Sequence record: DRR378314_740
Reading direction: 5' to 3' (one strand)
Length of the DNA: 48,913 bases
Part shown: positions 3,626-25,739 of the stretch, piece after piece
Numbering within the stretch: the first letter of the stretch is position 1
How the letters are laid out: the number at the start of each line of letters is the position of its first letter
Translations under genes and position numbers: made by a program
Notes under the pieces: generated by a model
The model's database searches: none
What the model was told of the DNA's origin: nothing
What the model saw: the letters and a program-made list of their open reading frames with translations, nothing else

Positions 3626-3643
3626 CACATCTTTTTTGCATTT

Positions 3644-5870: not shown

Positions 5871-5886
5871 TCAGCCGGTTTTTCCA

Positions 5887-5911: not shown

Positions 5912-5916
5912 CATCC

Positions 5917-8905: not shown

Positions 8906-8943
8906 GGTGAATCCGGATGATTGACGGCCGGCCACGTTGGGCC

Positions 8944-8976
8944 GATTTGATAATGAGAATGGGAGATAATATCATC
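8944..8976. promoter_or_regulatory. Putative Fur-binding site in divergent promoter
   Basis: GATTTGATAATGAGAATGGGAGATAATATCATC, an array of GATAAT-like hexamers between divergent iron ABC genes. Confidence 0.55.
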
Positions 8977-9002
8977 TGGGCTCACTTAAAAGCGACGCCC
9001 AC

Positions 9003-10780: not shown

Positions 10781-10804
10781 CAGCTGCGCCAGTCCCGCCA
10801 ATAG

Positions 10805-11413
10805 TTACCTTGGTCGGTAGCCATCAAGAATCTGCGCCATGTCGTCTCCCAGGGCGCTCAGATCTATAGCAGACAGGTTTCGTTCCGCTATGGAGCGCAG
10901 GCCCATGATCTGGCTTTGCAACAGGCGGGCAAGGCGACCCGTATCGACGGAACCTTTCAACTCTCCCCGTTCCTTGGCCCGATCCAGGAGCGCCCTAAAG
11001 GAGTGCTCAATTCCTCCGAGGATCGCCAGCGCCTGTTCAGAAAGCCCAGCGTGCGTATTGCTGGATTCAAGTAGCGTTTTGACAATCAGGCAGGCACGGG
11101 ACGGCGGGGAATCGACATTCCCATTGATACAGCTCTGGGCGATGTTGCGAAGATAGTCTTGAAGGCCTTCAACGATCGAGTCGTAACCAGACATATGCTC
11201 TGCCAGCTCCGCACCGCCAGCGTCAGCGTAACGGCTGAGGGCTTCGGAGTAGAGACGATCTTTGCTGCCAAAGGTTGCATAGATGCTACCAGGCCGCATA
11301 TCCAGTGCTCGTTCGATTTGCTTCATGGAGCTACCGTGGTAACCCTTTGCCCAAAAGAGATCGACAGCCCGGGAAAGGGCGGACTCTCGATCATGATTTG
11401 GCGGTCTGGGCAT
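10805..11413 (-). CDS. TetR-family transcriptional regulator (NemR/ComR-like)
   Basis: N-terminal HTH FWAKGYHGSSM...GSIYATFGSKDRLY; C-domain ACLIVKT; divergent from the AhpD-like gene. Confidence 0.9.
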   Translation of the reverse strand: MPRPPNHDRESALSRAVDLFWAKGYHGSSMKQIERALDMRPGSIYATFGSKDRLYSEALSRYADAGGAELAEHMSGYDSIVEGLQDYLRNIAQSCINGNVDSPPSRACLIVKTLLESSNTHAGLSEQALAILGGIEHSFRALLDRAKERGELKGSVDTGRLARLLQSQIMGLRSIAERNLSAIDLSALGDDMAQILDGYRPR

Positions 11414-11435
11414 GATAATACCATCCACATCTAGC

Positions 11436-11510
11436 CTGAATGTTCACTCAATTATATATTGAGCAATCGCTCAAAAACAGTTAGGGTTTTGTTGTTGATC
11501 GATTACTCAT
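11436..11510. promoter_or_regulatory. Three TetR-type palindromic operators
   Basis: CTGAATGTTCACTCAA (11436), TTGAGCAATCGCTCAA (11459) and TTGATCGATTACTCAT (11495) in the divergent intergenic region. Confidence 0.75.
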
Positions 11511-11525
11511 AAATGGAGATGATTT

Positions 11526-12080
11526 ATGACAGACTTTAAATTGCACACCATCGAATCCGCTCCGGAAGGCTCGAAACCTTTGCTGGATAACTCCCAGAAA
11601 AATTTTGGAATGATCCCCGGGTTGCATGCAGTCATGGCGGAGTCTCCACAGGTGCTGGAGGCCTATCAAAAGCTTCACCAGTTGGTTCTGGACAGCAGTT
11701 TCGATAACGATGAAAAGACGGTCGTCTGGCAGACGATTAACGTCGAGAATGCCTGTCATTACTGTGTTCCGGCGCATACAGGTATTGCAAAGATGATGGA
11801 AGTCTCCGATGAGATCGTTGATGCGTTACGTGACGAGTCCCCGCTTCCCAGTGACAAGCTTGAAACGTTGCGCACGTTCACGCTTACTGTCATGCGCAAA
11901 CATGGTAATGCCAGCAAACAAGACCTGAATTCGTTCTTTGAGGCAGGCTACAGCAACCGTCAGGCGCTGGAGGTCATCATGACATTGTCCCAGAAGGTCA
12001 TGAGCAACTATATCAACCATATTGCCGAAACACCGGTTGACGAGCCGTTCAAGAAATTTGCCTGGACCAAGGCGCAGTAA
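11526..12080 (+). CDS. Carboxymuconolactone decarboxylase/AhpD-like peroxidase family protein
   Basis: FGMIPGLHAVMAESP and ENACHYCVPAH (CxxC plus His); RBS GGAG. Confidence 0.88.
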   Translation: MTDFKLHTIESAPEGSKPLLDNSQKNFGMIPGLHAVMAESPQVLEAYQKLHQLVLDSSFDNDEKTVVWQTINVENACHYCVPAHTGIAKMMEVSDEIVDALRDESPLPSDKLETLRTFTLTVMRKHGNASKQDLNSFFEAGYSNRQALEVIMTLSQKVMSNYINHIAETPVDEPFKKFAWTKAQ

Positions 12081-12089
12081 ACCTGCCTG

Positions 12090-12115
12090 GGCCGTGTGGA
12101 GAATTCTGCACGGCC
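12090..12115 (+). terminator. Hairpin after the AhpD-like gene
   Basis: GGCCGTG...CACGGCC inverted repeat; no clear U-tract. Confidence 0.45.
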
Positions 12116-12121
12116 AATTCA

Positions 12122-12148
12122 TGTAACAAATAGCCTCACCCTGTGTCT
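12122..12148 (+). promoter_or_regulatory. ECF-type promoter upstream of the DUF547 gene
   Basis: TGTAAC-N15-GTGTCT; same motif recurs elsewhere in the island. Confidence 0.75.
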
Positions 12149-12197
12149 GTGACCACACCCTTCACCCTGCAATTTGATGATCATCCTGGGAGTGGTT

Positions 12198-13043
12198 ATG
12201 TTTTTTCTTCAGAGGTTTATCGTCGTACTAGGCTTGGTTCTTTGTTCGAGCATCACGGAGGCGGGGGTCAACTCCGAGCTCTATGCGAACTATCAGCGCC
12301 TGTTGTCCGACTATGTCATTGAAAAGCCACTGTCCGGGAATGGTCTCGTGTCGGCTTTCAACTACAAAGTCGCTTTAGCGGATGAGAACCTCGAGCAAAT
12401 AACGACAGCTCAACATGAAGCCCTTAAAGCGTTTGACCCTCAAAAATTGGACGGGTCTGAGGAGGCCGTGGCCTTCTGGATAAACGCCTACAATTTTTTC
12501 ATGCTCTCCCAGGTGCTGACGGACCGGCCGAGTGGCGAACTCGTCTCGTCCGTCTGGGATTACGGTGGCCGGTTGAATCCCTTTGTCGACAGTGTGTTCG
12601 AGCGGAAAATATTCAATATTGGTGGGCGTTCCTATAGCTTGAATGAGATTGAGAAGGAGATTCTGCTTGGCGAGCAATTCGCTGCAAAAGGCTGGAAGGA
12701 TGCGCGGGTCCACTTTGCGGTGAACTGTGCATCCGTTGGTTGCCCGCCGTTGCGGGATGTTATCTACACCGCCGACAATCTGGAAAACCTGCTGGCGGAA
12801 AACACCAGACGGGCATTCGCAACCGACCGCCACCTCAGGATCGTAGGGAATACTCTGCATGTCACCGAGCTGTTCAAATGGTATGAAGAGGACTTCGCAG
12901 CGGCTTCCGGTTCACGGAAGGCATTCATTGCGGAGTGGGTGGATTCGTCGGTGGCGGATCGCGTTGCAGCAGCGTCGGAGATGAAGTTCATCGATTATGA
13001 CTGGGCACTGAACAAACCATCCAATTTTCCGGAGTTCCGTTAG
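12198..13043 (+). CDS. Exported DUF547-domain protein
   Basis: Signal peptide; AFWINAYN, SLNEIEKEIL, DARVHFAVNCASVGCPPL, YDWALN motifs. Confidence 0.88.
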   Translation: MFFLQRFIVVLGLVLCSSITEAGVNSELYANYQRLLSDYVIEKPLSGNGLVSAFNYKVALADENLEQITTAQHEALKAFDPQKLDGSEEAVAFWINAYNFFMLSQVLTDRPSGELVSSVWDYGGRLNPFVDSVFERKIFNIGGRSYSLNEIEKEILLGEQFAAKGWKDARVHFAVNCASVGCPPLRDVIYTADNLENLLAENTRRAFATDRHLRIVGNTLHVTELFKWYEEDFAAASGSRKAFIAEWVDSSVADRVAAASEMKFIDYDWALNKPSNFPEFR

Positions 13044-13071
13044 TCACTGTCGCTGAATACGGTCCATAGGA

Positions 13072-13101
13072 AAAGCCGCTATGCCCAAGCATGGCGGCTT
13101 T
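13072..13101. terminator. Bidirectional intrinsic terminator
   Basis: AAAGCCGCTATGC-CCAA-GCATGGCGGCTTT between convergent genes. Confidence 0.75.
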
Positions 13102-13113
13102 GGCTATCGTTGG

Positions 13114-13272
13114 TTATTTCGCAGAGACTTCAATACCCGCAACCTTCTCTACGGTTTTGTGTGGATAGCTTCGCGCTTCATTTGCCCGGTCGGCCTGGCC
13201 GTTCATCGCCAATGCGGTAGTGGCGGAGAATGACAGTGCAATAGCAGCGAAAATCAGTGTCAGTTTTCTCAT
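13114..13272 (-). CDS. Small (52 aa) secreted protein of unknown function
   Basis: MRKLTLIFAAIALSFSATTALA signal peptide with AxA site; GAGG RBS; own ECF-type promoter and a terminator. Confidence 0.75.
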   Translation of the reverse strand: MRKLTLIFAAIALSFSATTALAMNGQADRANEARSYPHKTVEKVAGIEVSAK

Positions 13273-13332
13273 AGGTTGATGCCTCGTGTTCATGATGTTG
13301 TGCGGGGCTTTCATGCCGCGCTTACGAGGTAT

Positions 13333-13360
13333 AGACACCCAACGGCCCTAACAAGTTACA
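13333..13360 (-). promoter_or_regulatory. ECF-type promoter for the small secreted protein
   Basis: Minus strand TGTAAC-N16-GTGTCT. Confidence 0.7.
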
Positions 13361-13492
13361 GGCTTTCAGTAGGCAGAGATCAAAAAATTCAGAGATGTAT
13401 AAATAAGGAAACGAACTAGAAATACGCCTATCCATCCCGTTTCGTTGTTTTCATAATGATCATTCAAGAATAAGTCGCAGAGGAGAAACGCC

Positions 13493-13654
13493 ATGAGCCG
13501 CGTACTCGCTATTGTTCTGGTCTTTGCCAGTTCGCTGGCAATGGCTGGAAGTGATACAACATCGCCACTGGTGGATGCCGGGTGGCTACAGGCCAACCTT
13601 GATCGGGACGATCTTGTTGTGCTGGATATCCGACCGCTCAGGGAGAACTGGTAA
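13493..13654 (+). pseudogene. Truncated exported rhodanese/sulfurtransferase (N-terminal 53 aa only)
   Basis: RBS AGGAG; MSRVLAIVLVFASSLAMAGSDTTSPLVDAGWLQANLDRDDLVVLDIRPLRENW*. PLVDxxWL...DLVVLDIR is the typical start of tandem-rhodanese sulfurtransferases. Not in the ORF track. Confidence 0.7.
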
Positions 13655-13680
13655 CTCGCGATAGCGCTGTCCTGACTCCT

Positions 13681-14427
13681 TCAAACCGGGTCGGTCGCCA
13701 GAATTTTCTTGAGGAAGTCTTTCGTCCGCGGATCCTTGGGATTGTAAAAGATCTCACCGGGCGGCCCTTGTTCCACAATTCGGCCGCCGTCGATAAAGAT
13801 CACACGGTCTGCGACGTCCCGGGCGAACGACATCTCGTGGGTAACCACCATCATGGTCTGGCGTTCCGAGGCCAGCTTTTTCATCAGACCCAGCACTTCC
13901 TCCACCCATTCCGGATCCAGTGAAGAAGTGGGTTCGTCAAACAGGATGACCTCGGCCCCGGTCGCCATTGCACGGCCAATACCAACCCGCTGTTGTTGGC
14001 CTCCGGACATGGATGCCGGGTAGGCGTCTGCCTTGTCAGCGAGGCCGATCTGTTCGAGTATTTCACGGCCGCGTTGGTACGCCTTTTCCTTTGGCCAGCG
14101 ATCCACCACCAGTAACCGTTCAGCGATGTTCTGCAATGCGGTCTTGTTGGAAAACAGGGCGTAGTTCTGGAACACAAAGGCCGTTCGCCGGCGCATGGAA
14201 AGGATGTCCGCACGGCTGGCACGGTTCACATCCACCGACAGGTCACCCACGGTCATGGTGCCGGTGGTGGGTTGTTCCAGAAAATTGATGCAGCGAAGCA
14301 GGGTTGATTTCCCGGTGCCGGAAGGGCCAATGATCACGACGATTTCACCCTTCTCGATCGTCAGGTCGATACTGTCGAGAACCACGGCCTTGCCGAAATG
14401 CTTACTCAGTGATTCCAATTTGATCAT
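13681..14427 (-). CDS. Polar amino acid (cystine-type) ABC ATPase
   Basis: [43 protein letters not shown]. Confidence 0.93.
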
Positions 14428-15098
14428 CGGCTATAGGCCTTGTTCAGACGGGTTTCCAGATAGTGCTGAAGCTTGGAGAGTATCTCGACCACAATCCAGT
14501 ACATGATGGCGGCGACGATGAAGGCCTCAAAATAGAGGAAGCTTCCGGCAGCCTCTTTCTGGGTGGCACCCATCAGTTCGGTGACTCCCAGGGTAAACGC
14601 CAGGGAGGTGGCCTTGATCATGTCGATGAAGTAGTTCATCAGCGTGGGCAGAGCCACCCGGGTGGCCTGGGGCAGAACGATCCGTCGCATCAGTTGGCCG
14701 TTGGTCATACCAATGGACAGCGCAGCCTCGGTCTGGCTGCGATCAACACCCACGATGGCGGCGCGGATCGATTCGGCCATATAGGCGGAGAAATGCAGGG
14801 TCAGGCCCATGATGGTCGCGGTGACGCCATCGATGACCGTCAGGGCGCTCACGAGTTGCGGCAGGCCGTAGTAGAACAGGAACAGCTGCACCAGCAGCGG
14901 CGTGCCCCGGAAGAAGGAGATGAATACGATCGTCAGCTGGTTGAGTACCGGGATGCGCAGCACCCGGACAACGGCAAAGAGGCAGGCGAGGATCAGCGCC
15001 AACACCATCCCGATACCGGCCAGTTGCAGGGTCAGTGGCAGGTACCTGAGTAGCACAGGTACCAACCCGAGCATGTATTCGACGTTCAACACGTCCAT
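14424..15098 (-). CDS. Polar amino acid (cystine-type) ABC permease
   Basis: [42 protein letters not shown] (EAA loop). Confidence 0.92.
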
Positions 15099-15124
15099 AG
15101 GGAGTCAGGCCTTGGTAGTGCCCC

Positions 15125-15880
15125 TCAGGGCTGGGTGATGTCCGTGCCGAACCACTTCTCGGAAATGGACGCCAGGGTACCGTTGTCGCGCAGGGTTGCG
15201 AGGGCTTTGTTGACCTCATCCCGCAGCGCCCGTCCGGCCTCGGTGTCGCGGAACGGATAGGCATTGGTAATCTGGGAGAACGTGGGGCCGGCGAGCTCCA
15301 GTGGCAGTGGCTTTTCCTTGATGATCTGGCTGGCACTGACTCGGTCCATCACGAAGGCGTCTACGCGGCCGAGAGCGGTATCGCGTTCCAGATTGCTCTC
15401 ATAGGTTTTGATGGTGATTTCGTCTGCGTAGGGCAGTTCCCGCAGCAAGGCCTCGAAGTTGGAACCCAGGTTCACCGCAACGGTCTTCCCCTTGAGGTCT
15501 TCCACGCTTTCGACCTCGGTGTTGCCCTTTTTAGTCACCACCTGGGCGCCGTCATAGACGTAGGGTTCGCTGAAGATGTACGCCTTCTGACGCTCCTCGG
15601 TGATGGTGATCTGGTTGGCAACGGTGTCGATGCGGCCGGACTCCAGCATGCCAAACAGGCCGGAGAAGTTGGCGGTCTGATACTGGATATCGCGCCCCAT
15701 CTCCTCGCCAATGGCATTCATGACATCGACCTCGAAGCCCTTGAGTTCATCCTGCTCCACAAAGGTGAACGGGAAGTACTGGCCCGACATACCGACTTTC
15801 AAGGGGTCTCCCTGGGCAAGAGCCGGAGCACTTACCATCATGGATACGATGATCAACGAATGAATCAGTAGTGTTTTCAT
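15125..15880 (-). CDS. Polar amino acid ABC binding protein (FliY/TcyA-like, probably cystine)
   Basis: ATG 15880 with GGAGG RBS and signal peptide; GMSGQYFPFTF, LESGRIDTVANQITITEER. Confidence 0.88.
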   Translation of the reverse strand: MKTLLIHSLIIVSMMVSAPALAQGDPLKVGMSGQYFPFTFVEQDELKGFEVDVMNAIGEEMGRDIQYQTANFSGLFGMLESGRIDTVANQITITEERQKAYIFSEPYVYDGAQVVTKKGNTEVESVEDLKGKTVAVNLGSNFEALLRELPYADEITIKTYESNLERDTALGRVDAFVMDRVSASQIIKEKPLPLELAGPTFSQITNAYPFRDTEAGRALRDEVNKALATLRDNGTLASISEKWFGTDITQP

Positions 15881-16028
15881 AGAACCTCCTTCCAGAGTTT
15901 GTCGCTTTAACAGCTCACGCTGGGACGAGCATGGAGTTATCATACGCGCCCTTGGTGTTTATTGAGAGTCGCGATAGCCGAGACGATACCTTCGGTATTT
16001 ACGGCCCGACGGGGTCGTCACTTTGTTG

Positions 16029-16700
16029 TTATTGGTTAAGTTGAAGCCAGCGCGCCAGCTGCGAGCCGGGGTGTCGGCTGATGGACCACGGCAACCATAC
16101 CATCACCGCCAGAATAACCGCGCCTGCGGCGACGGTCAGCACCGGATTCAACGTGAACGTGTTCCCCAGGCCTGCAAACACCACCGTCATTGGCAGCATG
16201 CCAACGAAGGTGGCAATGGCAAAGCGCCAGGCGCGTATGGCGGTGACGCCGGCGGCGTAGCTGATCAGGGCGAACGAAAAAACGGGGATCAATCGGGTCA
16301 GCAGGATGGCGATGGTCATAAAGCGTTGCGAGCCATCCCGTGCAAGCACAGGGTTGTCCGGAAAACGTTTGCAGATCACGTCGCGTCCGAGGCAGCGGGC
16401 AATCCAGAACGCTGCCATGGCACCCAGCAAGGCACCGGTTGCTGCAATGGCGGTTCCCTCAAGCAAACCAAACGCCAGGCCTGCGGTTGCACTGACCGGA
16501 AGCGTGGGAATCGGGCCTATCACAACCGCCATCGTCATCAGCAGCATCAGCAACAGTGGGCCGGCAGCCCCCTGGCTTTTCAGCCATTGCGAAAGGGCAT
16601 CTGGAGACAGGTCCGCAGGTAGTCCCAATATCTGCAGCAACCACCAGGCACCTGCCAGGGTAGCCATTACCACGACAACGATGGCGATTCTCAGTGTCAT
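16029..16700 (-). CDS. TVP38/TMEM64 (DedA/VTT) membrane protein
   Basis: PIPTLPVSATAGLAFG, LTRLIPVFSFALISYAAG; ATGA-coupled to the upstream gene. Confidence 0.88.
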   Translation of the reverse strand: MTLRIAIVVVVMATLAGAWWLLQILGLPADLSPDALSQWLKSQGAAGPLLLMLLMTMAVVIGPIPTLPVSATAGLAFGLLEGTAIAATGALLGAMAAFWIARCLGRDVICKRFPDNPVLARDGSQRFMTIAILLTRLIPVFSFALISYAAGVTAIRAWRFAIATFVGMLPMTVVFAGLGNTFTLNPVLTVAAGAVILAVMVWLPWSISRHPGSQLARWLQLNQ

Positions 16701-17449
16701 TCCGCCCATCGGAACCCCCGGTAATCGAATCCTTGTTCCAGCGTGGGTTTAACGACGTCGAAATAGGGGGAGGCGTCGAAATCCCGGGGCGCAAATAGAG
16801 AATGATGGCGAATCCGGAAGTACTCGCGCTTTTGCGCGGCGCAAGCCGGATCACCTTCGGATTCGGAGAGGCTTACGGGCAGTATCGGGTAATGGAGGGC
16901 CTGGAACCCCTCGGCGATGAATGTGGAGCAGATCGCCCGCGTGGGATCACCGCTGCCAAGGGCCAGAAGCGAACGTCGGTAACGGGACGGTACCGGTGGC
17001 GTCGGGCAAAGGTAGCGTGCCAGATCCCAGACGTTTTTCAGGTCGTACTGGTGGCCGAGCCGGCTTTTCGAGTAATCCACAAGCTTGCCGATATCATTGT
17101 CAGTGAGTCCGACCGGGCGACAGATGCGGGTATGGGTGTTGCGGTATGCCGACAACGAAAGCGGGCGAATACCTTCCTCAAGATCCGCCTCGATCAGTAC
17201 ATGCGGCTCGCCATTGTCGGCGGCGCCAAGGCCTGCGCTCGGTCCCAGGTAAAGGGCGGCGTGGGACCAGGTTGACTGAGTCAGGTACTTGATGGCCACA
17301 CTGATTCGCGTATTTCCCTCCACCAGTAAGACGTCGCCGGGCTGAAGAGTTTTTTTCAGGGCTTCCCAGGCGGAGGTGCGCACCGAGTGTTGGGTGACCT
17401 GCTTTGAAAGGTAGGTGGTCAGGCGCCGTGACAGCCAGTTCAGTAGCAT
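16697..17449 (-). CDS. YiiX/YebB-like permuted papain/NlpC-P60 cysteine amidase
   Basis: LQPGDVLL, WSHAALY (His) preceding ICSTFIAEGF (Cys), the permuted catalytic order; LGHQYD. Confidence 0.8.
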   Translation of the reverse strand: MLLNWLSRRLTTYLSKQVTQHSVRTSAWEALKKTLQPGDVLLVEGNTRISVAIKYLTQSTWSHAALYLGPSAGLGAADNGEPHVLIEADLEEGIRPLSLSAYRNTHTRICRPVGLTDNDIGKLVDYSKSRLGHQYDLKNVWDLARYLCPTPPVPSRYRRSLLALGSGDPTRAICSTFIAEGFQALHYPILPVSLSESEGDPACAAQKREYFRIRHHSLFAPRDFDASPYFDVVKPTLEQGFDYRGFRWAE

Positions 17450-17487
17450 TGGTACTCCGGTTGTTGGCGGTAGGTTGATAGCAACAA

Positions 17488-17514
17488 AGACAAACAACCG
17501 GACTGACTGTTACA
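17488..17514 (-). promoter_or_regulatory. ECF-type promoter for the amidase-DedA operon
   Basis: Minus strand TGTAAC-N15-TTGTCT. Confidence 0.7.
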
Positions 17515-17530
17515 ACGCCCTGGCGCCGTT

Positions 17531-17941
17531 CTACGCAGCAGTGGGAGCCGGTTGCCTCGAAAGCGTAAGCGTATCGTAATCACGAAGCAGATACAGCGCC
17601 GCGCATGCGGCAAGCATGGGCCAGGCCGCAAAGAACAGAAGGTTATCGAAAGGCTGCAGGTACTTTGCGAATGAAGACAGGGTTGAAGCACCGTGGAAGA
17701 TCAGGAGTGCGCCGTAAGTCCAGGTTTTCAGTAGGCCAGCAACAAACACCAGTATCAGCACAAGTTGTGCGATGCCAATAAGGTAGACGGCTGTCTCGCC
17801 AAGGCCATCGAGCCCGTAAAATGAATCGAATACCTTGATAGCGTGCTCAGGCTGAACCAGCTTATCCAGGGTCCAGACCAGAAAAACAACGAAAACACCA
17901 AGTCGAAGTAACAGCAGGGCAAGGGGTAACTGCTTGGGCAT
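17531..17941 (-). CDS. DoxX-like membrane protein
   Basis: LALLLLRLGVFVVFLVWTLDKL, about 4 TM segments; GGAG RBS. Confidence 0.78.
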   Translation of the reverse strand: MPKQLPLALLLLRLGVFVVFLVWTLDKLVQPEHAIKVFDSFYGLDGLGETAVYLIGIAQLVLILVFVAGLLKTWTYGALLIFHGASTLSSFAKYLQPFDNLLFFAAWPMLAACAALYLLRDYDTLTLSRQPAPTAA

Positions 17942-17961
17942 TCCATATCTCCTTTCGAATT

Positions 17962-18005
17962 TTGAATGATCGTTCCAGAGACAGAGCGGCGGTGTGGGAG
18001 TTCCA
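17962..18005 (-). promoter_or_regulatory. ECF-type promoter plus adjacent TetR-type operator for the DoxX gene
   Basis: Minus strand TGGAAC-N15-CTGTCT (17979-18005) immediately followed by palindrome TTGAATGATCGTTCCA (17962-17977). Confidence 0.65.
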
Positions 18006-18088
18006 TTGGCAAGCGAAAAGAGTGGTTCTGTCAGAGCCAGGTGGAACGTCCGGAAGGGGCGGGTGTCGTTACATGAAAGCGAAGAGCG

Positions 18089-18352
18089 TCACGGGGCAGA
18101 CGTGTCGTTTCCGGAGCGCCGAGCGTTGAGCGACTCACTGACCCGTTCGTCAATCCGGCGTACCAGATCTTCGTCTGCTTGTTGACTGGAGTGCGTGCTC
18201 ATAAGCTCTATGCTGGCCTTCAGGCTGCCAATGAAACTGCGACAGCGACCGCACATCAGTAGGTGCATCTTCACAGACATCACCTTCCCAGCGCCCAATT
18301 CACCGTCAATGTAATCACTGGCGATGCGAGCCAGGTCCCGGCACATTAACAT
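18089..18352 (-). CDS. Soluble zinc-binding anti-sigma factor (zf-HC2/ZAS)
   Basis: MCRDLARIASDYIDGEL...HLLMCGRC (HxxxCxxC); no TM segment; overlaps the ECF sigma stop. Confidence 0.9.
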   Translation of the reverse strand: MLMCRDLARIASDYIDGELGAGKVMSVKMHLLMCGRCRSFIGSLKASIELMSTHSSQQADEDLVRRIDERVSESLNARRSGNDTSAP

Positions 18353-18966
18353 TCGCCTGTCTCCTGAAATGCCTCAACCATCAGAAAGATTTTCTGCCGT
18401 GCCCGATGCAGGAGCACGCGCAGGTTAGAGGCGCTGACATCCAGAATGTTACACACGTCGTCGGATTTATGCTGATGCGCTTCGTACAACATCAATGCTG
18501 ATCGCTGTGTTTCCGGCAGTGCGGACAGGTGTTGATCGAGGCAGTCGCTCAGCGCACCGTTCTCCATCAGCGCCTGGGCGGACTCATTGAATTTCAGGCT
18601 CGGCGGTGTGGCCCAGCGACCATTGGGCGCAAAGCGGGCGGCGAGGTCCGGGTCCAGCGCTTCCGAAAAATCCGCGTTTACTTCCCTCCTGGTCTTTCGG
18701 AGATGATTCTTGGCCCGGTTTGCTACGATACGGTGCAGCCATGTCTTCAGGCCGGAACGGCCCTCAAATGTCCGAACGGCGTCGATAACCGTCACCCAAC
18801 AATCCTGGACAATTTCCTCTGCCGAGGCGTGATCAAGGTAAAAGCGGGCGACGGCCATCATGCCAGGGGTGTATAAACGCACAGCGTCGCGAAAGGCGCC
18901 CTGGTTCCCCGACTTCAGGCCGGTGATGAGGATGTCGTCGTCAGATTGATGTGTTGTGGTTTCCAT
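18346..18966 (-). CDS. ECF sigma factor
   Basis: Region 2 AEEIVQDCW...FEGRSGLKTWLHRIVANRA; region 4 LPETQRSALML...SNLRVLLHRAR. Confidence 0.93.
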   Translation of the reverse strand: METTTHQSDDDILITGLKSGNQGAFRDAVRLYTPGMMAVARFYLDHASAEEIVQDCWVTVIDAVRTFEGRSGLKTWLHRIVANRAKNHLRKTRREVNADFSEALDPDLAARFAPNGRWATPPSLKFNESAQALMENGALSDCLDQHLSALPETQRSALMLYEAHQHKSDDVCNILDVSASNLRVLLHRARQKIFLMVEAFQETGEC

Positions 18967-18979
18967 TCCGTATACCCCA

Positions 18980-19006
18980 GGACACCTGCGTTAGAGCGTT
19001 GTTATA
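18980..19006 (-). promoter_or_regulatory. Possible autoregulatory ECF promoter
   Basis: Minus strand TATAAC-N15-GTGTCC, two mismatches to the island consensus. Confidence 0.45.
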
Positions 19007-19079
19007 AACATGTTATTGGACATCCAGGGCGGCCTGGACAATGGTATGGCTATAGTCGCAGCCATTAGTTCCAGTAATG

Positions 19080-19095
19080 ATGAGTGACTGCTCAA
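19080..19095. promoter_or_regulatory. TetR-type operator between the ECF gene and the reductase operon
   Basis: Reverse complement TTGAGCAGTCACTCAT matches 13/16 of the 11459 operator. Confidence 0.6.
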
Positions 19096-19116
19096 AAAAT
19101 TTTAGACCCGGGCTGC

Positions 19117-19143
19117 TGTAACATCCAGCGCTTTGGCGTGTCT
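19117..19143 (+). promoter_or_regulatory. ECF-type promoter for the reductase-radical SAM operon
   Basis: TGTAAC-N15-GTGTCT. Confidence 0.75.
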
Positions 19144-19184
19144 CTCAGAGCAACCGTTTTCACTTTTAATCTATGGATTTAGCT

Positions 19185-21374
19185 ATGAACTCCAAAAAGC
19201 TCGTTTTGCTGCTGGTTATCGGTGCCCTGGTGGCATTGTTTATTGGCTTTGGCGGCCACGAGATACTGACGCTGGAAAACCTGCAGAGACACCAGGCGTC
19301 CATTGACCAGTGGATCAGTCAGAACCTGCTGGTGGCGGTGCTTGGCTTTGCCGGTGTCTATGTTGTGGTGACCGCGCTTTCATTGCCCGGTGCCGCGATC
19401 ATGACCCTGGCCGGCGGCGCGTTTTTCGGAAATATCTACGGGCTGATTGCGGTGTCCATTGCCTCAACCATTGGTGCCTCCCTCGCCTTTCTGGTAGCTC
19501 GCTTCCTGATGCGCGATACCCTGCGCAACAAGTACGCTGAAACCGTAGCGAAGATGGATCGTGGCATTCAGAAAGACGGCGCCTTTTACCTGGCAACGCT
19601 GAGATTGGTGCCGGTGTTTCCTTTCTTCCTGATCAACCTGGCCATGGGTTTGACGGCCATGAAGCTGAAAACCTATGCGCTGGTCAGTTGGGCGGCGATG
19701 CTGCCGGGCACTTTTGTGTACGTAAACGCAGGCACGCAGCTGTCGACGATTGAGTCCACTGGCGACATTGTCTCTGCGAACATTCTGCTCTCTTTCGCCC
19801 TACTGGGTATCTTCCCGCTGATTGCCAAGTTCATTGTCGGCTTTATCCGCAAACGCCGGGTGTACGCCGGCTGGCAGAAGCCTGAATCGTTTGACTACAA
19901 CCTGCTGGTGATCGGTGGTGGTTCTGCTGGGCTGGTGTCAGCCTATATTGCCGCCGCGGTGAAGGCCAAGGTGGCACTCATTGAGCGAGACAAGATGGGG
20001 GGCGACTGCCTGAACACTGGCTGCGTGCCGTCCAAGGCCCTGATCCGCAGCGCCAAGGCCGCCGACACCCTGCGCCACGCCAACCGCTATGGCCTGGAAT
20101 CGGTCCCGGTGAAGGGCTCCTTCAAAAATATCATGAACCGCGTTCAGGACGTGATTGCCCAGGTGGAACCCCACGACTCGCCCGAGCGCTATCGAAAACT
20201 GGGTGTTGACTGCATCGCTGGCACCGCGAGTTTCGTATCGCCCTGGGAGTTGGAGGTTGTCCACAATGACGGCCGCACCGAGCGCCTGACCGCTCGCAGT
20301 ATTGTCGTCGCTACCGGTGGCAAACCGGCCATGCCACCGATTCCCGGGCTGGCGGACATGGAACCACTGACGTCTGATAACCTCTGGTTGCTGGATGTGC
20401 AGCCTGAGCGTCTGTTGGTGCTCGGTGGCGGCCCCATTGGCTCTGAACTGGCTCACGCTTTCGCACGTCTGGGCAGCAAAGTGACCCAAGTGGAAATGGG
20501 CGAGCGCCTACTGGCCAAGGAAGACGCTGATGTCTCTGACGTCATCCGTAAACGGTTTGAGCAGGACGGTATTGATCTTCGGTTGAACCATGCGGCGAAA
20601 GAGTTTGCGGTGGAAGACGGAGAAAACGTGGCGTACTGCGAACACAACGGCGAACGCGTGAGGATTCCGTTTGACCAGGTTCTGGTGGCCGTTGGCCGTG
20701 CCGCCCGCACTGATGGCCTGGGGCTGGAAAAAATCGGGGTGGACACCCTGCCCAATGGCACGGTGCCGGTGGAAGAAGACATGAGTCTGCGCTTCCCCAA
20801 TGTCTTCGCCTGCGGCGATGTGGCTGGCCCCTACCAGTTTACCCACGCGGCGGCTCATCAGGCCTGGTACGCGGCGGTGAATGGTCTGTTCGGGCAGTTC
20901 AAGCGGTTCAAAGTCGATTACCGGGTGATGCCCTGGGTGACCTTTACCTCGCCAGAAGTGGCCAGGGTCGGGCTGAGCGAGGCGGAAGCAAAAGAGAAAG
21001 GTGTGGCTTACGAGGTCACGCGTTATGGCTTGGACGATCTGGACCGGGCCATCGCCGAGAGCGAAGCCTATGGCTTTATCAAAGTGCTGACGCCGCCGGG
21101 CAAGGATAAGATTCTGGGTGCCGTGGTGGTGGGTGCGCACGCCGGTGAAATACTGGCGGAGTTCACCCTCGCCATGAAGCACGGGCTGGGCCTGAACAAG
21201 ATTCTCGGCACCATCCACCCCTACCCGACCTGGAACGAATCCGCCAAATACGCGGCCGGCGAGTGGAAGCGTGAACACGCGCCCCAGGGAATTCTCAAAC
21301 TGCTTGAAAAGCTTCACGGCTGGCGTCGCGGCAAGCGGGCCGAAGACAAAGCCGCACGAGAAATCACAACGTAA
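19185..21374 (+). CDS. Fusion of an N-terminal DedA/VTT membrane domain and a flavin disulfide reductase (LpdA/MerA/RclA superfamily)
   Basis: VTT motif LRLVPVFPFFLINLAMG; GGGSAG, GGDCLNTGCVPSK, GGGPIG, TIHPYPT. Alternative start 19173. Confidence 0.9.
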   Translation: MNSKKLVLLLVIGALVALFIGFGGHEILTLENLQRHQASIDQWISQNLLVAVLGFAGVYVVVTALSLPGAAIMTLAGGAFFGNIYGLIAVSIASTIGASLAFLVARFLMRDTLRNKYAETVAKMDRGIQKDGAFYLATLRLVPVFPFFLINLAMGLTAMKLKTYALVSWAAMLPGTFVYVNAGTQLSTIESTGDIVSANILLSFALLGIFPLIAKFIVGFIRKRRVYAGWQKPESFDYNLLVIGGGSAGLVSAYIAAAVKAKVALIERDKMGGDCLNTGCVPSKALIRSAKAADTLRHANRYGLESVPVKGSFKNIMNRVQDVIAQVEPHDSPERYRKLGVDCIAGTASFVSPWELEVVHNDGRTERLTARSIVVATGGKPAMPPIPGLADMEPLTSDNLWLLDVQPERLLVLGGGPIGSELAHAFARLGSKVTQVEMGERLLAKEDADVSDVIRKRFEQDGIDLRLNHAAKEFAVEDGENVAYCEHNGERVRIPFDQVLVAVGRAARTDGLGLEKIGVDTLPNGTVPVEEDMSLRFPNVFACGDVAGPYQFTHAAAHQAWYAAVNGLFGQFKRFKVDYRVMPWVTFTSPEVARVGLSEAEAKEKGVAYEVTRYGLDDLDRAIAESEAYGFIKVLTPPGKDKILGAVVVGAHAGEILAEFTLAMKHGLGLNKILGTIHPYPTWNESAKYAAGEWKREHAPQGILKLLEKLHGWRRGKRAEDKAAREITT

Positions 21375-21411
21375 ACCGTTTTAATAGATTCAACGCAAAC
21401 ACGGAGCAGCT

Positions 21412-22374
21412 ATGCCCCTGACCCAAACCGCCGAAAAACGCATACCCGCCGTGGAAGTGCTGGAACCCAGGGCCCACGACAGCTGGACCCACACCCGCAA
21501 CGGCGACCCGCGCGGCTACATTGATTCCGACAGGCTCAAGGAGCTGTGGATTCACACCGGCACCGCCTGCAACCTGGCCTGCCCATTCTGTCTGGAGGGG
21601 TCGCACCCCGGCGATGGCCGTATTCCAGGCATGAAGCTGAGCGACGTGAAGCCGTTTATCCACGAAGCCCTGGACATGGGCGTGGAGCAGTTTTCCTTCA
21701 CCGGCGGCGAGCCCTTCGTGATCCGCGATTTCGTGAACATCCTGGATTACGCCAGCCACCACCGCCCCTGCTTTGTGCTCACCAACGCGACCGACCCGCT
21801 GCTCAAACGCAAACACCAGGTGCTGCCGCTGCTGGACAACCCCTACCGGATCCACTTCCGTGTCAGCCTGGACTTCCCCGACCGCGCCCGCCACGACGTG
21901 GACCGTGGCGAGGGCAGTTTCGACAAGGCATTGGAGGGTATCCGCTGGCTGGTGGATCAGGGATTCCAGGTGTCGATTGCCCGCCAGACCGATCCGGAGG
22001 AGATTCCGGCGGATGTGGAGGCGGCTTTCCGCGAGATTCTGCGGGACTGGGGTATTTCCGAGACCCTGGCGTTTACCGCGTTCCCGGACCTCGGTACGCC
22101 GGGCTCCGAAGACGGTAGCCCAGAGATCACGGAAACCTGCATGGAGAAGTACCCGACCAAGGAAGCGCGGTCGCATTTCATGTGCACTTATACGCGAATG
22201 CTGGTCAAGCGGAACGATCAGGTGCGGGTGTATGCCTGTACGTTGGTGGATGATGATCCGCAGTATGACCTTGGGGGGACGCTGGCGGAGAGCATGGATG
22301 AGCGGATTATGCTTCGGCATCACCGGTGTTTTGCCTGTTATCGGTTTGGGGCTAGTTGTTCGGCGCCTGGGTAG
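21412..22374 (+). CDS. Radical SAM protein with Cys-rich C-terminus (distantly ArsS-like)
   Basis: CNLACPFC, FTGGEPF, VLTNA, RVSLD; C-terminal FMC...YAC...RCFACYRFGASC. Confidence 0.9.
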   Translation: MPLTQTAEKRIPAVEVLEPRAHDSWTHTRNGDPRGYIDSDRLKELWIHTGTACNLACPFCLEGSHPGDGRIPGMKLSDVKPFIHEALDMGVEQFSFTGGEPFVIRDFVNILDYASHHRPCFVLTNATDPLLKRKHQVLPLLDNPYRIHFRVSLDFPDRARHDVDRGEGSFDKALEGIRWLVDQGFQVSIARQTDPEEIPADVEAAFREILRDWGISETLAFTAFPDLGTPGSEDGSPEITETCMEKYPTKEARSHFMCTYTRMLVKRNDQVRVYACTLVDDDPQYDLGGTLAESMDERIMLRHHRCFACYRFGASCSAPG

Positions 22375-22424
22375 TTTTTTTGGCTTTGGGAGATGGGCTT
22401 TGTAGGACTGGTTGCTGGGGATTG

Positions 22425-22521
22425 GCGGCCTGGGGGTGGTGTTTTATTTCCTTGGGAAAAAGAACTCGCTTCGCTCAGACACCTTTTTCCTGGCGGAAAT
22501 AAAACACCACCCCCAGACCGC
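22425..22521. repeat. Long palindromic intergenic element (REP/MITE-like hairpin)
   Basis: Perfect 22-bp inverted repeat (22430-22451 / 22495-22516), inner GGAAAAAG/CTTTTTCC stem, loop AACTCGCTTCGCTCAGACAC. Confidence 0.8.
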
Positions 22522-22576
22522 GGTTGAGTCACTGCAATTCGTTGGATTAAAACAAATAACGAGGAAAAGACAGACA

Positions 22577-23980
22577 ATGAACTTCACGGAAGCGACCCTG
22601 TTTTGGGGGTTTTTGGTTGTTTATGGGGTGGTGATGTATGTGTTGTCGCCCAAGAGCAAGAACGCCAATTCGTTCTACAAGGGGGCGGATGATCAGGGGA
22701 ATCCGGTGGGGCAGTGGTCGCTGACGGCGAGTATTTTTATCAGCTGGATCTTTGCCAAGTCGGTCACCAACGCTGCCAACCTGGGGGCGGCCTATGGTGT
22801 GACCGGGGGGCTAGCGTATGCCAGTTACTGGCTGTCGATTCCGGTGGCCGGTTATATCATCTATCTGATTCGCACGCAGACCGGTGCCCGCAGCCTGCAG
22901 GATTTCCTCACCTCCCGCTTTGGCCGACTCGCCAGTCTGGCGTTTGCGGCGGCGATTCTGATTCGGTTGTACAACGAAGTTTGGAGTAACACTGCCGTGG
23001 TGGGTGGTTACTTCGGGCTGCCTGGGGAGTGGGAATACTACGTGGCCGCCATGCTGTTTACCGCCTTTACCCTCGCCTACAGTCTCAAGGGCGGTTTGCG
23101 GTCGTCGATCTTCACCGACGTGATCCAGGCCTTCGTGTTTGTGTTCTTTGTCGGGGCGGTGCTGTTCCTGATTGTGCCGGCTAACGACACCAGCGCCCTG
23201 CTGACCAATGGCGAGTTCAAACTGAACGCCGGGTTTGATCTGTTGCTGGTGGCATTGCTCCAGATGTTCAGCTACCCCTTCCATGATCCTGTGCTGACGG
23301 ATCGCGGTTTCGTGAACAAAGAAAAAACCATGCTCAAGAGCTTTGTGGTGGCCGGGCTGCTGGGCTTTGTGGCGGTGTTTATCTTCAGTCTGGTGGGGGT
23401 GCATGCGCGACTGAATGGCATCGAGGCCATGGGTAATGCCCCGGCTGCGGTGGGGCAATCGCTGGGACTGGCGGCGTTGTTCTTCATGAGCGTGGTGATG
23501 ATGACGTCTGCCGGTTCCACGCTCGATTCCACTTTCAGCTCCCTGGCCAAGTCGCTGGCGGTGGATCTGCCGCGGCTGGCGAAGCGGGCGAAAGACCGCT
23601 TGCCGAGTGTGCGAGTGGGTGCGGTTATCATGATTGTCTTCGCACTGCTGGGTAACCTGCCGATGTTTGCCGGTACCGACATTCTCAAGGCCACGACCAT
23701 TTCCGGCACCATGGTGATGGGGCTGGCGCCGGTGTTCCTGTTCTATGGGTTTACACGGTGGTCGCCCTGGAGTTTCCACCTGAGCTTCTGGACCGGTCTG
23801 GGGCTGGGTGTGTTGCTCGCAACGGGCCTGATTCCGGCAAGTTGGGCCATTGGTGACGGAAAATACGCCATGCTGCTGGGTGTGAACGCCTACGGCTTCC
23901 TGATCTGTTCCGCTGGATTCTTCGTGCCGCTGATTGTTCGCCGGCTTGCCGGGCGTTCATTGGCGGCGGGCGAAGCGTAA
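22577..23980 (+). CDS. Sodium:solute symporter family transporter
   Basis: ATG 22577 with GAGG upstream; many TM segments; YSLKGGLRSSIFTDVIQ and SAGSTLDS SSF motifs. Confidence 0.88.
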   Translation: MNFTEATLFWGFLVVYGVVMYVLSPKSKNANSFYKGADDQGNPVGQWSLTASIFISWIFAKSVTNAANLGAAYGVTGGLAYASYWLSIPVAGYIIYLIRTQTGARSLQDFLTSRFGRLASLAFAAAILIRLYNEVWSNTAVVGGYFGLPGEWEYYVAAMLFTAFTLAYSLKGGLRSSIFTDVIQAFVFVFFVGAVLFLIVPANDTSALLTNGEFKLNAGFDLLLVALLQMFSYPFHDPVLTDRGFVNKEKTMLKSFVVAGLLGFVAVFIFSLVGVHARLNGIEAMGNAPAAVGQSLGLAALFFMSVVMMTSAGSTLDSTFSSLAKSLAVDLPRLAKRAKDRLPSVRVGAVIMIVFALLGNLPMFAGTDILKATTISGTMVMGLAPVFLFYGFTRWSPWSFHLSFWTGLGLGVLLATGLIPASWAIGDGKYAMLLGVNAYGFLICSAGFFVPLIVRRLAGRSLAAGEA

Positions 23981-23991
23981 GGGGGCGGGTG

Positions 23992-24942
23992 ATGACCGAA
24001 GGCCGAACCTGCCCTCTGGCGTATCGCTACAGCCCTGCAGAGTTATGTTCGGCCCCCCAACAGGCGACCGGTGATGTGCTGTACGTCATTGGTGGCCTTT
24101 ACGGGAACCCCTATGCCCTGGATGAGATTGAGCGGATGGCCCAGGCGGAGGAGCGCCAGGGGCATCGGGTCACACTGGTGTTTAACGGGGATTTCAACTG
24201 GTTCAACGCCAGTGACCGTCTGTTCCGCGAGATCAACAACCGGGTGCTGGACCATACCGTCATCCTGGGCAATGTGGATTATGAGTTGGCCAACGCCAAT
24301 GAAGGCGCTGGCTGCGGCTGTGCCTATCCGGACTTTGTGGATGAGGGCGTGGTGGAACGTTCCAACGCCATCATGGAGCGGTTGCAGGCGGTGGCCGGAG
24401 ATCACCCGGATATCCAGGCCCGGTTGTCCTTGCTACCACGGTATCGGTGCCTGTTATTTGGAGGCCTAAAGGTTTTGGTGGTTCATGGAGATCCCGAATC
24501 CTTGGCGGGGTGGGGGTTGGCCCATGAATCCTTTGTGGCCGGCAACGAGTCGACGCTTGCGGGCTGGTTCGATCAGACCGGTGCCGACGTGATCGTTTCC
24601 ACCCACACCTGCCTGCCGGTGCTCTGGTCTGAGCGCCTGGAGGGGCGTTGTCGAGTCGTTGCCAATAATGGCTCGGCGGGGATGGGTAACCTGTTCGAGG
24701 ACCCGCGGGGGCTGATCACTCGCATCGGTCTGGCAAGCCCCGTGGCTGAGCCCGTTGTCGGTCTTGAATGCGAAGGATTGAGTGTCACCCTGTTGCCGGT
24801 CGACTACGATCTTGATGCCTGGCTCTCGCAGTTCGACCGACGTTGGCCGGCCGGTTCCGCGGCAGCGGTGTCATACCGAAATCGGATCGTTGGAGGGACG
24901 TTACTCCGTGCAGAGGACGTCACATTTCCGCGTCGTATTTAA
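23992..24942 (+). CDS. Metallophosphoesterase-fold protein with degenerate motifs
   Basis: IGGLYGN, FNGDF, LGNVD, VVHGDP, STHTC, VANNGSAG in calcineurin-like motif order; extra GAGCGCAYP. Confidence 0.75.
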   Translation: MTEGRTCPLAYRYSPAELCSAPQQATGDVLYVIGGLYGNPYALDEIERMAQAEERQGHRVTLVFNGDFNWFNASDRLFREINNRVLDHTVILGNVDYELANANEGAGCGCAYPDFVDEGVVERSNAIMERLQAVAGDHPDIQARLSLLPRYRCLLFGGLKVLVVHGDPESLAGWGLAHESFVAGNESTLAGWFDQTGADVIVSTHTCLPVLWSERLEGRCRVVANNGSAGMGNLFEDPRGLITRIGLASPVAEPVVGLECEGLSVTLLPVDYDLDAWLSQFDRRWPAGSAAAVSYRNRIVGGTLLRAEDVTFPRRI

Positions 24943-25029
24943 CGGATTTGTCACTGGCGGATGGTGCAATACGGTCTATTCTGAACGTGTAAGAGGAAGT
25001 GTGTATCGGGTGTGCTCCGGACCGCCGAC

Positions 25030-25057
25030 TTGAAATATATTTTGTGGTCTATATAAT
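25030..25057 (+). promoter_or_regulatory. Sigma70 promoter of the ect operon overlapped by an EctR-like operator
   Basis: TTGAAA-N16-TATAAT; TATTTTGT-GG-TCTATATA at 25038-25055. Confidence 0.7.
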
Positions 25058-25092
25058 TTACCGCTAACTTTTTGAGGCGAATCGATCACGTT

Positions 25093-25608: not shown

Positions 25609-25739
25609 CCGTCTTTCCGAATGATCGATACCCCTGTCTGGATCAGCCGGCAGATTGCTGAGGTGAATCTGTCACAACGGCTTTAACCAACGTGCCACCG
25701 CACAGCTACCTCGAACCTGACATGCTAAGAGGCAAGACA

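Follow-up and report, generated by a model that had tools for sequence, protein, structure and literature searches.

An ArsS-like radical SAM enzyme in a locus-confined ECF-type regulon: probably a variant of the bacterial arsenosugar-type pathway

Introduction

What is the function of a region in which an enzyme of the radical S-adenosylmethionine (SAM) type, a membrane-anchored disulfide reductase, a transporter of the sodium:solute symporter family (SSF), and a phosphoesterase-like protein face an extracytoplasmic function (ECF) sigma factor that is paired with a soluble zinc-binding anti-sigma factor (ZAS)? The question is raised by positions 10,805 to 24,942 of a stretch of 48,913 nucleotides from the sequence record DRR378314_740 (the window). 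The initial annotation described this region as a candidate 14-kb island matching no pathway that it could name. Among named systems, the ArsS/TIGR04282/TIGR04283 "arsenosugar biosynthesis" gene set comes nearest, and the region consists of three parts, namely a core locus, a species-variable left arm with the same promoter-like site, and a conserved pair of TetR and AhpD-like genes. Rather than an entirely new system, the locus is probably a variant of a bacterial arsenosugar-type pathway that is itself poorly understood.

In vitro, ArsS converts DMAs(III) to DDMAA by transfer of a 5'-deoxyadenosyl group (PMC13598754). The steps of the arsenosugar pathway past the first C-As bond, and all of its regulation, are biochemically unexplored. 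The locus described here offers an ECF/ZAS switch that is well defined, its promoter motif being precise, and a distinct family of ArsS-like enzymes that apparently replaces ArsS. Moreover, the DedA-fused reductase, the exported DUF547 protein, and the degenerate phosphoesterase are candidates for the unexplored steps. Marinobacter, the genus of the closest loci, is culturable and genetically manipulable. A full-text literature search, subscription journals not covered, returned no description of this radical SAM family, of an ECF link, or of the Marinobacter locus, and nothing specific on the gene combination.

The Radical SAM Enzyme Resembles ArsS Over Its Full Length

No curated family claims the radical SAM enzyme of the region; its best NCBIfam match, to the Rv1681 family, reaches 105 bits against a cut-off of 380. 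The cluster motif CNLACPFC (C53x3C57x2C60) is followed by six C-terminal cysteines that are invariant in the homolog alignment (C243, C258, C276, C306, C309, and C316), so that the enzyme shows both the CxxxCxxC motif and the Cys-rich C-terminal domain of ArsS. Aligned with 12 bona fide ArsS proteins in hhalign, it gives a probability of 96.6% and an E-value of 4.7e-10 over 266 columns with 21% identity. The alignment takes in the cluster motif as well as the C-terminal cysteines, and pairs C258, C276, and C306xxC309x6C316 of the window enzyme with C235, C250, and C289xxC292x7C300 of ArsS. Judged by its sequence, the window enzyme is a distant full-length homolog of ArsS, which bears out the lead toward ArsS given in the initial annotation. 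A PDB sequence search with the profile of the enzyme yielded only generic radical SAM cores, the best being SkfB (E 5e-11).

Genes Shared With ArsS Loci and Phyletic Distribution

Related loci were collected with the radical SAM protein as anchor, which gave 368 confirmed genome loci; the best 80 of these, with 10-kb flanks, were compared with the window proteins (tblastn, E <= 1e-6, coverage >= 0.5). Outside Marinobacter, a 350-residue ArsM-type methyltransferase directly precedes the radical SAM gene in 18 of these 80 loci. The arsenite methyltransferase model fits it best, at 180.6 bits and thus under the cut-off of 263, and it has invariant CC, YYGCG, SNCVINL, and GECLSGA motifs, a cysteine set that we take to be the pattern of ArsM. 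In about 9 of the 80 loci, the radical SAM gene has neighbors from the families TIGR04283 (269 bits, cut-off 182) and TIGR04282 (125 bits, cut-off 134). None of ArsM, TIGR04282, and TIGR04283 is present in the window. In Pseudohongiella-type loci (L032-L036, L040, and L046), the radical SAM gene stands beside photolyase and trp genes, with no reductase, ECF, or ArsM-type neighbor within 10 kb; its partnership is therefore not universal.

Conversely, accessory genes of the window were looked for in 12 bona fide ArsS loci. One of them (L118) has homologs of the ECF sigma factor (41% identity), the ZAS, and the DUF547 protein, and another (L129) has AhpD-like, DUF547, DUF3179, DedA, and ZAS homologs. 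The full DedA-reductase fusion is found in two (L119 and L120, with 58% and 52% identity), the reductase part alone in four more, and an ArsM-type gene in four. Thus, ECF/ZAS, DUF547, DedA-reductase, AhpD-like, and DedA genes surround both enzymes, and the company of DUF547, TVP38, MerA-like reductase, and radical SAM genes that the initial annotation named for ArsS clusters is indeed seen in these loci.

In five genomes bearing the radical SAM gene, no protein exceeds the ArsS cut-off and the radical SAM enzyme is the top match of the ArsS model in each; all five carry TIGR04283. In genome G006, TIGR04283 and TIGR04282 are both above cut-off, as an unlinked pair 1.65 Mb from the radical SAM locus. 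This transferase pair (L105, G006:C1:3222000-3241900, 7645-10973) adjoins a gene with a phage-type integrase domain and a pitrilysin-like protease. In a single sample of 300 genomes of the class (G254 unscored; the unpublished genomes G045, G147, and G302 included in the tallies), ArsS and TIGR04283 are each above cut-off in 142 genomes, nearly always together and often adjacent. With looser thresholds, 143 genomes have both genes, 14 have TIGR04283 without ArsS, and 142 have neither. The window-type enzyme (E <= 1e-40) occurs in 8 sampled genomes, of which 6 fall among the 14 with TIGR04283 alone, 1 among the 142 with neither gene, and 1 among the 143 with both. Its occurrence in 6/14 genomes with TIGR04283 and without ArsS compares with 2/286 in the others (Fisher p = 8e-8, genome kinship ignored). 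On this distribution, the enzyme appears to take the place of ArsS in genomes that keep the TIGR04282/TIGR04283 "arsenosugar" transferases.

A Genus-Wide Core and a Variable Left Arm

Homologs of the reductase fusion are found in 49 of the 80 loci, of the ECF sigma factor in 32, of the SSF transporter in 31, of the phosphoesterase-like protein in 30, and of the ZAS in 26; ectA and ectB occur in 31 and 30 loci, respectively. For the other genes, the counts are 10 for YiiX, 5 for DUF547, and 4 for DoxX, and TetR, AhpD-like, ABC permease, and ABC binding protein homologs are present in three loci each, where syntenic TetR and AhpD genes would lie beyond the 10-kb flank and several loci are cut by contig ends. 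In 15 of the 80 loci, greedy length-based calling of open reading frames (ORFs) lost the radical SAM gene to an antisense ORF.

ORF clustering gives a Marinobacter layout in which ZAS-ECF faces reductase-radical SAM-SSF-phosphoesterase, followed by ectAB. About 30 Marinobacter loci keep the synteny of core and ectAB. Of the 81 Marinobacter genomes sampled, 77 carry the radical SAM gene; therefore, the core is a genus-wide chromosomal locus and not a mobile island. The left arm varies by species and may contain DUF3179, SoxA-like cytochrome c, DUF6969, DinB, DsbA-like, PEBP, ADP-ribosylglycohydrolase, TTL-like ligase, YiiX, DoxX, DedA, DUF547, and ABC transporter genes. Of the island that the initial annotation proposed to examine by gene neighborhood across Marinobacter, the core genes are conserved together, whereas the left arm is a variable collection that differs between species.

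A Predicted ECF/ZAS Switch With a Locus-Confined Promoter Motif

The ECF sigma factor exceeds the TIGR02937 cut-off (72.4 against 42.9 bits), its gene overlaps the ZAS gene at 18,346-18,352, and the ZAS sequence reads C4...H30xxxC34xxC37, features which together mark an ECF sigma factor/ZAS pair. The composite TGTAAC-N16/17-TGTCT has four copies in the window, every one inside the region, intergenic or at a gene start, and oriented toward a gene (12,122+, 13,360-, 17,514-, and 19,117+); TGTAAC by itself is not enriched in the window (13 matches, 10.75 expected). With a position weight matrix (PWM) derived from related loci, the three N16 sites score 27-34 bits and the next-best site in the window 11. 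Feeble variants of the motif precede DoxX and the ECF gene, and neither pattern search nor PWM finds the motif before the ABC transporter.

In the window and the 80 related loci (1.43 Mb), there are 56 composite matches, nearly all with an N16 spacer, where our own arithmetic predicts about 3 by chance under uniform base composition. The motif is labeled as preceding the reductase gene in 23 loci; other genes that it precedes in relatives are YiiX (L001, L005, L010, L015, and L018), DUF3179, DUF547, TTL-like, and sometimes the radical SAM gene. Whole genomes were those of relatives reached through the loci, and in two of them the exact N16 motif sits solely at this locus (two sites in G006 and one in G005), with one genome-wide match of the reversed control pattern in each. 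A one-mismatch version of the motif lies ahead of the ArsM-type gene in M. mobilis (L029), and the true ArsS locus L118 has a TGTAACA -35 element, placed between the 41%-identical ECF gene and DUF547-ArsS. As about 30 Marinobacter loci keep the motif ahead of the same genes and two genomes confine it to the locus, a locus-confined ECF-type regulon is well supported by these sequence comparisons. The initial annotation, which had proposed such a local regulon, had counted about 15 genes sharing two motifs. Both motifs are present, but the number is overstated: some 8-11 genes would be within reach of the four promoters, and there are two copies of the operator.

A terminator scan did not rise above shuffled sequences (22 against 15.0, standard deviation 3.8). 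It called no terminator between the DedA and ABC transporter genes, and transcription of YiiX-DedA possibly reads on into the cystine-type ABC importer. In four RNA libraries made from relatives that are 85-95% alike, contigs span the ABC transporter, YiiX to ECF, and reductase to phosphoesterase; such contigs cannot show transcription, starts, or induction. One of them runs across divergent genes, and no conclusion on expression was based on them.

The TetR/AhpD-Like Pair and Its Palindrome

Each of five Marinobacter genomes has one TetR homolog, always divergent from an AhpD-like gene, and the pair is located 3-39 kb from the core. The AhpD-like protein is 75-82% identical in the five genomes and reaches 45.9 bits against TIGR01926, under the cut-off of 81.8. 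A palindrome similar to that of the window (<=1 mismatch) is found in the TetR/AhpD intergenic region of three of five related genomes. The second copy in the window (19,081), with extended similarity, lies 23 nt upstream of the -35 element of the core. It stands at -98 from the reductase start codon in the window and in L001, and at -98 to -101 in L002-L004; its position is kept in these four closest loci and its spacer letters differ among them. Across the window, the palindrome at <=2 mismatches is not enriched (34 against 26.6).

Proposed Pathway and Alternative Explanations

We lean slightly toward reading the locus as an ECF/ZAS-switched variant of the arsenosugar-type pathway, here without ArsM. 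A thiol-reactive trigger would attack the ZAS cysteines and thereby free the sigma factor, which would start transcription from the four promoters. The most plausible trigger is a trivalent (methyl)arsenical, though general disulfide stress is a possible one. The SSF transporter may import a methylated arsenical, an uptake proposed because the genomes lack ArsM. That the locus serves to "import and modify", in the words of the initial annotation, can reasonably be inferred because ArsM is missing and a transporter is present. The membrane-anchored DedA-reductase would keep the arsenical trivalent. The radical SAM enzyme would then attach a 5'-deoxyadenosyl group to it, creating a C-As bond as ArsS does on DMAs(III), and the phosphoesterase-like protein, the exported DUF547 protein, and the unlinked transferases might process the product. 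A more far-reaching scenario, which we consider rather unlikely as a whole, is that Marinobacter and other heterotrophs with this enzyme in place of ArsS perform no methylation of their own. They would import methylarsenicals from phytoplankton, sense them via the ZAS cysteines, and build arsenosugars or arsenolipids with a third C-As-forming radical SAM family and the membrane-anchored DedA-reductase. In this scenario, marine arsenic cycling would include an ECF/ZAS switch that senses arsenicals, and also a new enzyme family. If the substrate is an imported methylarsenical, the placing of heterotrophic bacteria in this cycling would change.

Of the known systems, the ArsM/ArsS arsenosugar initiation module of Synechocystis, taken together with TIGR04167, TIGR04282, and TIGR04283, is the closest. 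The window enzyme shares with ArsS the CxxxCxxC motif and the aligned C-terminal cysteine constellation, related genome G006 has both transferases, and 18/80 related loci have the ArsM-type neighbor. In contrast to ArsS, the enzyme lies outside TIGR04167 in an uncurated radical SAM family (21% identity in hhalign), and in contrast to the module, the window and five of five Marinobacter genomes lack ArsM and the transferases are unlinked. The window further differs by an added SSF transporter and degenerate phosphoesterase, by the reductase standing first in the operon, and by the defined ECF/ZAS switch as its variant feature. The ArsL/ArsM arsinothricin module is similar in that a radical SAM enzyme that makes a C-As bond (for the window enzyme, a predicted activity) is paired with an ArsM-type methyltransferase in relatives; a related protein (c11) reaches 143.7 bits against NF040538, under the cut-off of 500. 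However, the window enzyme, compared here with ArsS sequences, aligns over its full length with ArsS, which transfers 5'-deoxyadenosyl, and the window has no ArsQ-type permease.

Several observations weigh against an arsenosugar-type pathway. The radical SAM enzyme stays far under the ArsS equivalog model TIGR04167 (41.4 bits against 300), whose match is limited to the radical SAM core (residues 38-186), and the same gene in related genomes scores 36-50 bits. ArsM is above cut-off in none of five Marinobacter genomes (best 68 bits against 263), no ArsR, ArsC, Acr3, or ArsH-type family was found among window ORFs >=90 aa, and no strong promoter copy precedes the ECF gene itself (best PWM score 2.0). 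Arsenical sensing by the ZAS is pure inference, and adenosylation of an arsenical by the window enzyme is extrapolated from ArsS. Neither the SSF transporter nor the phosphoesterase-like protein has a counterpart in the 12 ArsS loci; their assigned roles are therefore guesses. The co-occurrence statistic of the radical SAM enzyme ignores the relatedness of genomes, and its eight positives include the unpublished genome G302, whose match is weak (172 bits). Since TIGR04283 is found in 142 of 300 genomes, its mere presence says little; this frequency is far above that reported for bacterial arsenosugar production. Finally, the variable genes (DsbA-like, DinB, MsrB, and the cystine importer) equally fit a general thiol-stress regulon.

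Such a regulon, of the SigR-RsrA kind and answering to disulfide stress, HOCl/HOSCN, or electrophiles, would use the reductase, the AhpD-like protein, DUF547, the cystine importer, and DoxX to restore the thiol balance of cytoplasm and envelope, and the radical SAM enzyme would be unrelated to arsenic. Like SigR-RsrA, the window has a soluble ZAS with C...HxxxCxxC, predicted to be co-transcribed with the ECF sigma factor, and a set of controlled genes rich in thiol-active proteins. CxxC or CxxxxC motifs in many members, the cystine-type importer of the left arm, the genes for DsbA-like, DinB, MsrB, and SoxA-like cytochrome c proteins that relatives have close to this ECF gene, and the finding of neither ArsM nor ars genes also agree with thiol stress. 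However, the ZAS scores 23.2 bits against the RsrA equivalog TIGR03988 (cut-off 62.5), and TGTAAC-N16-TGTCT is limited genome-wide to one locus centered on an ArsS-like enzyme, unlike the motif of a broad stress regulon. The initial annotation had likened the genes to E. coli RclABC, in which one stress regulator likewise governs a flavin disulfide reductase together with a membrane protein and a small protein that is exported. This comparison is not supported. The window reductase has an additional N-terminal DedA domain and lies far under the cut-offs of RclA (NF040477, 233.5 bits against 740), Gor, and MerA, and neither the DoxX-like protein nor the small ORFs have an RclB or RclC match in NCBIfam, a library in which the presence of such models was not checked. 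Moreover, the regulator of RclABC is the AraC-type RclR, in place of which the window has the ECF/ZAS pair. Thiol stress also leaves unexplained the full-length homology and the complementarity of the radical SAM enzyme to ArsS, and its adjacency to an ArsM-type gene in 18/80 loci, and we hold this explanation to be improbable, though worth keeping in view.

Two further explanations appear considerably less probable. HpnH, a radical SAM enzyme acting on hopene, provides a model for a modification of membrane lipids in which DedA domains of the lipid scramblase type deliver a lipid for the radical SAM enzyme to adenosylate or cross-link, and phosphoesterase and transferases finish the head group, the arsenic link being an accident of naming. 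The two DedA domains, one fused to the reductase, the fatty-acid hydroxylase that adjoins the set in Methylophilaceae loci, and the LpxH match of the phosphoesterase-like fold would suit this model. COG0398 DedA proteins are proposed phospholipid flippases, for which the fusion to a reductase is the commonest and without assigned function (PMC10127716). The HpnH match of the window enzyme itself is weak (38.5 bits, far under the cut-off of 225), the neighboring methyltransferase shows what we take to be the full ArsM cysteine pattern, and the chemistry of ArsS on DMAs(III) has been shown in vitro (PMC13598754). We regard lipid modification as very unlikely in its own right, and it is compatible with arsenolipids and thus not truly exclusive of the arsenosugar-type pathway. 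Just as unlikely in our view is a mosaic without functional unity, in which ECF/ZAS and the four-gene operon alone belong together and TetR/AhpD, DUF547, ABC transporter, and small ORFs are unrelated genes at a recombination-prone spot. In accordance with a mosaic, the left arm differs among species, other genomes have TetR/AhpD at a distance of 3-39 kb from the core, a dip in G+C to 0.50-0.52 is confined to 11-14 kb, the ABC transporter lacks the motif, and the small ORF is not conserved. On the other hand, DUF547 and YiiX have the promoter motif both here and in relatives, DUF547 lies within the operon in L025, L028, and L038 and beside true ArsS in L118 and L129, and the four closest loci retain, at the same place, the palindrome that lies upstream of the core promoter, with changed spacer letters.

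Gene Inventory and Further Products of the Region

The features of the region are listed in Table 1. Most items in the gene list of the initial annotation agree with Pfam and NCBIfam matches; the ABC transporter had been overlooked. The "rhodanese remnant" (ORF 13,493-13,654) has no Pfam rhodanese match and a single weak tblastn match, which leaves this item unconfirmed.

Table 1. Genes and sequence elements between positions 10,805 and 24,942 of the window.
Feature	Position	Strand	Basis
TetR-family regulator	10805..11428	-	PF00440 41.4 bits and TetR_C_13 (Pfam)
Putative TetR operator, palindrome TGAGCAATCGCTCA between TetR and AhpD-like genes	11460..11473	.	Exact match
AhpD/CMD-like protein with CHYC	11526..12080	+	PF02627 24.9 bits
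ECF-type promoter-like site TGTAAC-N16-TGTCT before DUF547	12122..12148	+	PWM score 27.2
Exported DUF547 protein	12174..13043	+	PF04784 95.7 bits
Small ORF with signal-peptide-like segment	13114..13338	-	ORF listing
ECF-type promoter-like site with N17 spacer, before small ORF	13333..13360	-	
Second small ORF without family	13366..13596	-	ORF listing; family scans
Cystine-type polar amino-acid ABC transporter, three genes	13681..15943	-	NCBIfam best matches
ABC transporter parts: ATPase; permease; binding protein	13681..14427; 14424..15098; 15125..15943	-	
Stand-alone DedA/VTT membrane protein	16029..16709	-	PF09335 86.4 bits
YiiX/YaeF-type permuted papain-like (C92) protein	16697..17497	-	PF05708 36.1 bits
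ECF-type promoter-like site before YiiX	17488..17514	-	PWM score 30.2
DoxX-like membrane protein	17531..17941	-	PF07681 21.5 bits, under cut-off 23.6 (weak)
Soluble zinc-binding anti-sigma factor (ZAS), 87 residues	18089..18352	-	zf-HC2 32 bits
ECF sigma factor	18346..18966	-	Sigma70_r2 and r4_2 (PF04542, PF08281)
Second TetR-type palindrome copy (TGAGTGACTGCTCA)	19081..19094	.	One mismatch
ECF-type promoter-like site before core operon	19117..19143	+	PWM score 33.6
Fusion of DedA/VTT and pyridine-nucleotide disulfide reductase, 733 residues	19173..21374	+	PF09335, PF07992, and PF02852
Radical SAM enzyme	21412..22374	+	Distant full-length ArsS homolog (sequence)
Divergent SSF transporter	22412..23980	+	PF00474 34.9 bits
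Palindromic element, 27-bp arms, between radical SAM and transporter genes	22425..22521	.	
Calcineurin-fold phosphoesterase-like protein, 317 residues	23989..24942	+	Predicted fold; Metallophos_2 18.4 bits against 27

In the core operon, the reductase fusion carries CLNTGC and lies below the NCBIfam cut-offs for MerA, RclA, Lpd (lipoamide dehydrogenase), and Gor (glutathione reductase), with 375.4 bits against 454 for MerA (TIGR02053); a CC near the C-terminus, as in the Cys pair of MerA, was looked for in the translation and is absent. Relatives of the SSF transporter are 467-470 aa long. The palindrome at 22,425-22,521 inflates the ORF as called, and the real start is therefore probably the ATG near 22,577. 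This palindrome is 96% complementary and is kept at its position in nine Marinobacter loci, across which 19/37 pairs are compensatory. In the RNA libraries of relatives, contigs pile up and break at the element, with 3-4x depth and numerous loose ends, and one relative is without it. On these grounds a specific RNA element was rejected, and the palindrome is read as a probable REP-like repeat of the dispersed kind. An Rfam scan of 10,500-25,800 returned sub-threshold plant and animal miRNA models, all on the hairpin at 22,425-22,521, which were judged spurious.

The AF2 model of the phosphoesterase-like protein (pLDDT 86.5) finds SapH as its top Foldseek match (3qfm, E 6.8e-12, TMq 0.59), with LpxH and Vps29 also among the matches, and the nearest cluster in an Atlas search is named calcineurin-like. 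Motif I reads GGLYGN, without D or H; NGD, GN, HGD, and HTC are kept. Invariant residues are C8, C109xC111, H166GD168, and H206TC208, among them four cysteines. At least 6989 homologs match at E <= 1e-10. The best 120 are annotated as hypothetical or metallophosphoesterase, and those that carry an organism name are all from Marinobacter, which gives no functional lead.

In the left arm, the DUF547 protein has a signal peptide and invariant C185/C190 in CASxxCP. A wide VIA search with its model (pLDDT 81.8) gave generic helical matches, the best with Z 6.5, and no fold assignment. The best NCBIfam matches of the ABC transporter are TcyN (317 bits against 406), a cystine permease (197.7 against 300), and a cystine-binding protein (195.6 against 312). 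All three proteins thus stay under the TcyJLN equivalog cut-offs, yet cystine models are the top matches for each; the same trio occupies this position in L012 and L013. YiiX relatives are 250 aa long and the -10 element of the promoter falls within the YiiX ORF as called; its real start is probably the ATG near 17,449. DoxX follows ECF-ZAS in L053 as well. The small secreted peptide of the initial annotation exists as an ORF (13,114-13,338) with a signal-peptide-like segment, MRKLTLIFAAIALSFSATTALA, and a probable start at the internal ATG near 13,272. It has no family match and no homolog in the 80 related loci, and is a candidate gene only. In the convergent gap between DUF547 and this ORF (13,044-13,113), a G+C-rich hairpin stands between A and T runs (AAAAGCCGC...GCGGCTTT) and resembles a two-way terminator by its sequence; it is absent from the list of the terminator scan.

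On the far left, window positions 59-10,780 hold genes for a formate dehydrogenase alpha subunit and FdhD, a TonB-dependent receptor, a siderophore-type ABC transporter, and a sucrase/ferredoxin-like protein, for which no tie to the region at 10,805-24,942 was seen. The right end of the region is marked by ectA and ectB, both above their equivalog cut-offs (207 bits against 120.6 and 638 against 552), which follow directly at 25,072-27,008. They have a sigma-70-like promoter of their own at 25,030-25,057 (11/12 matches to the consensus). Past ectAB lie the genes of an aspartate kinase and an RpoS-like sigma factor.

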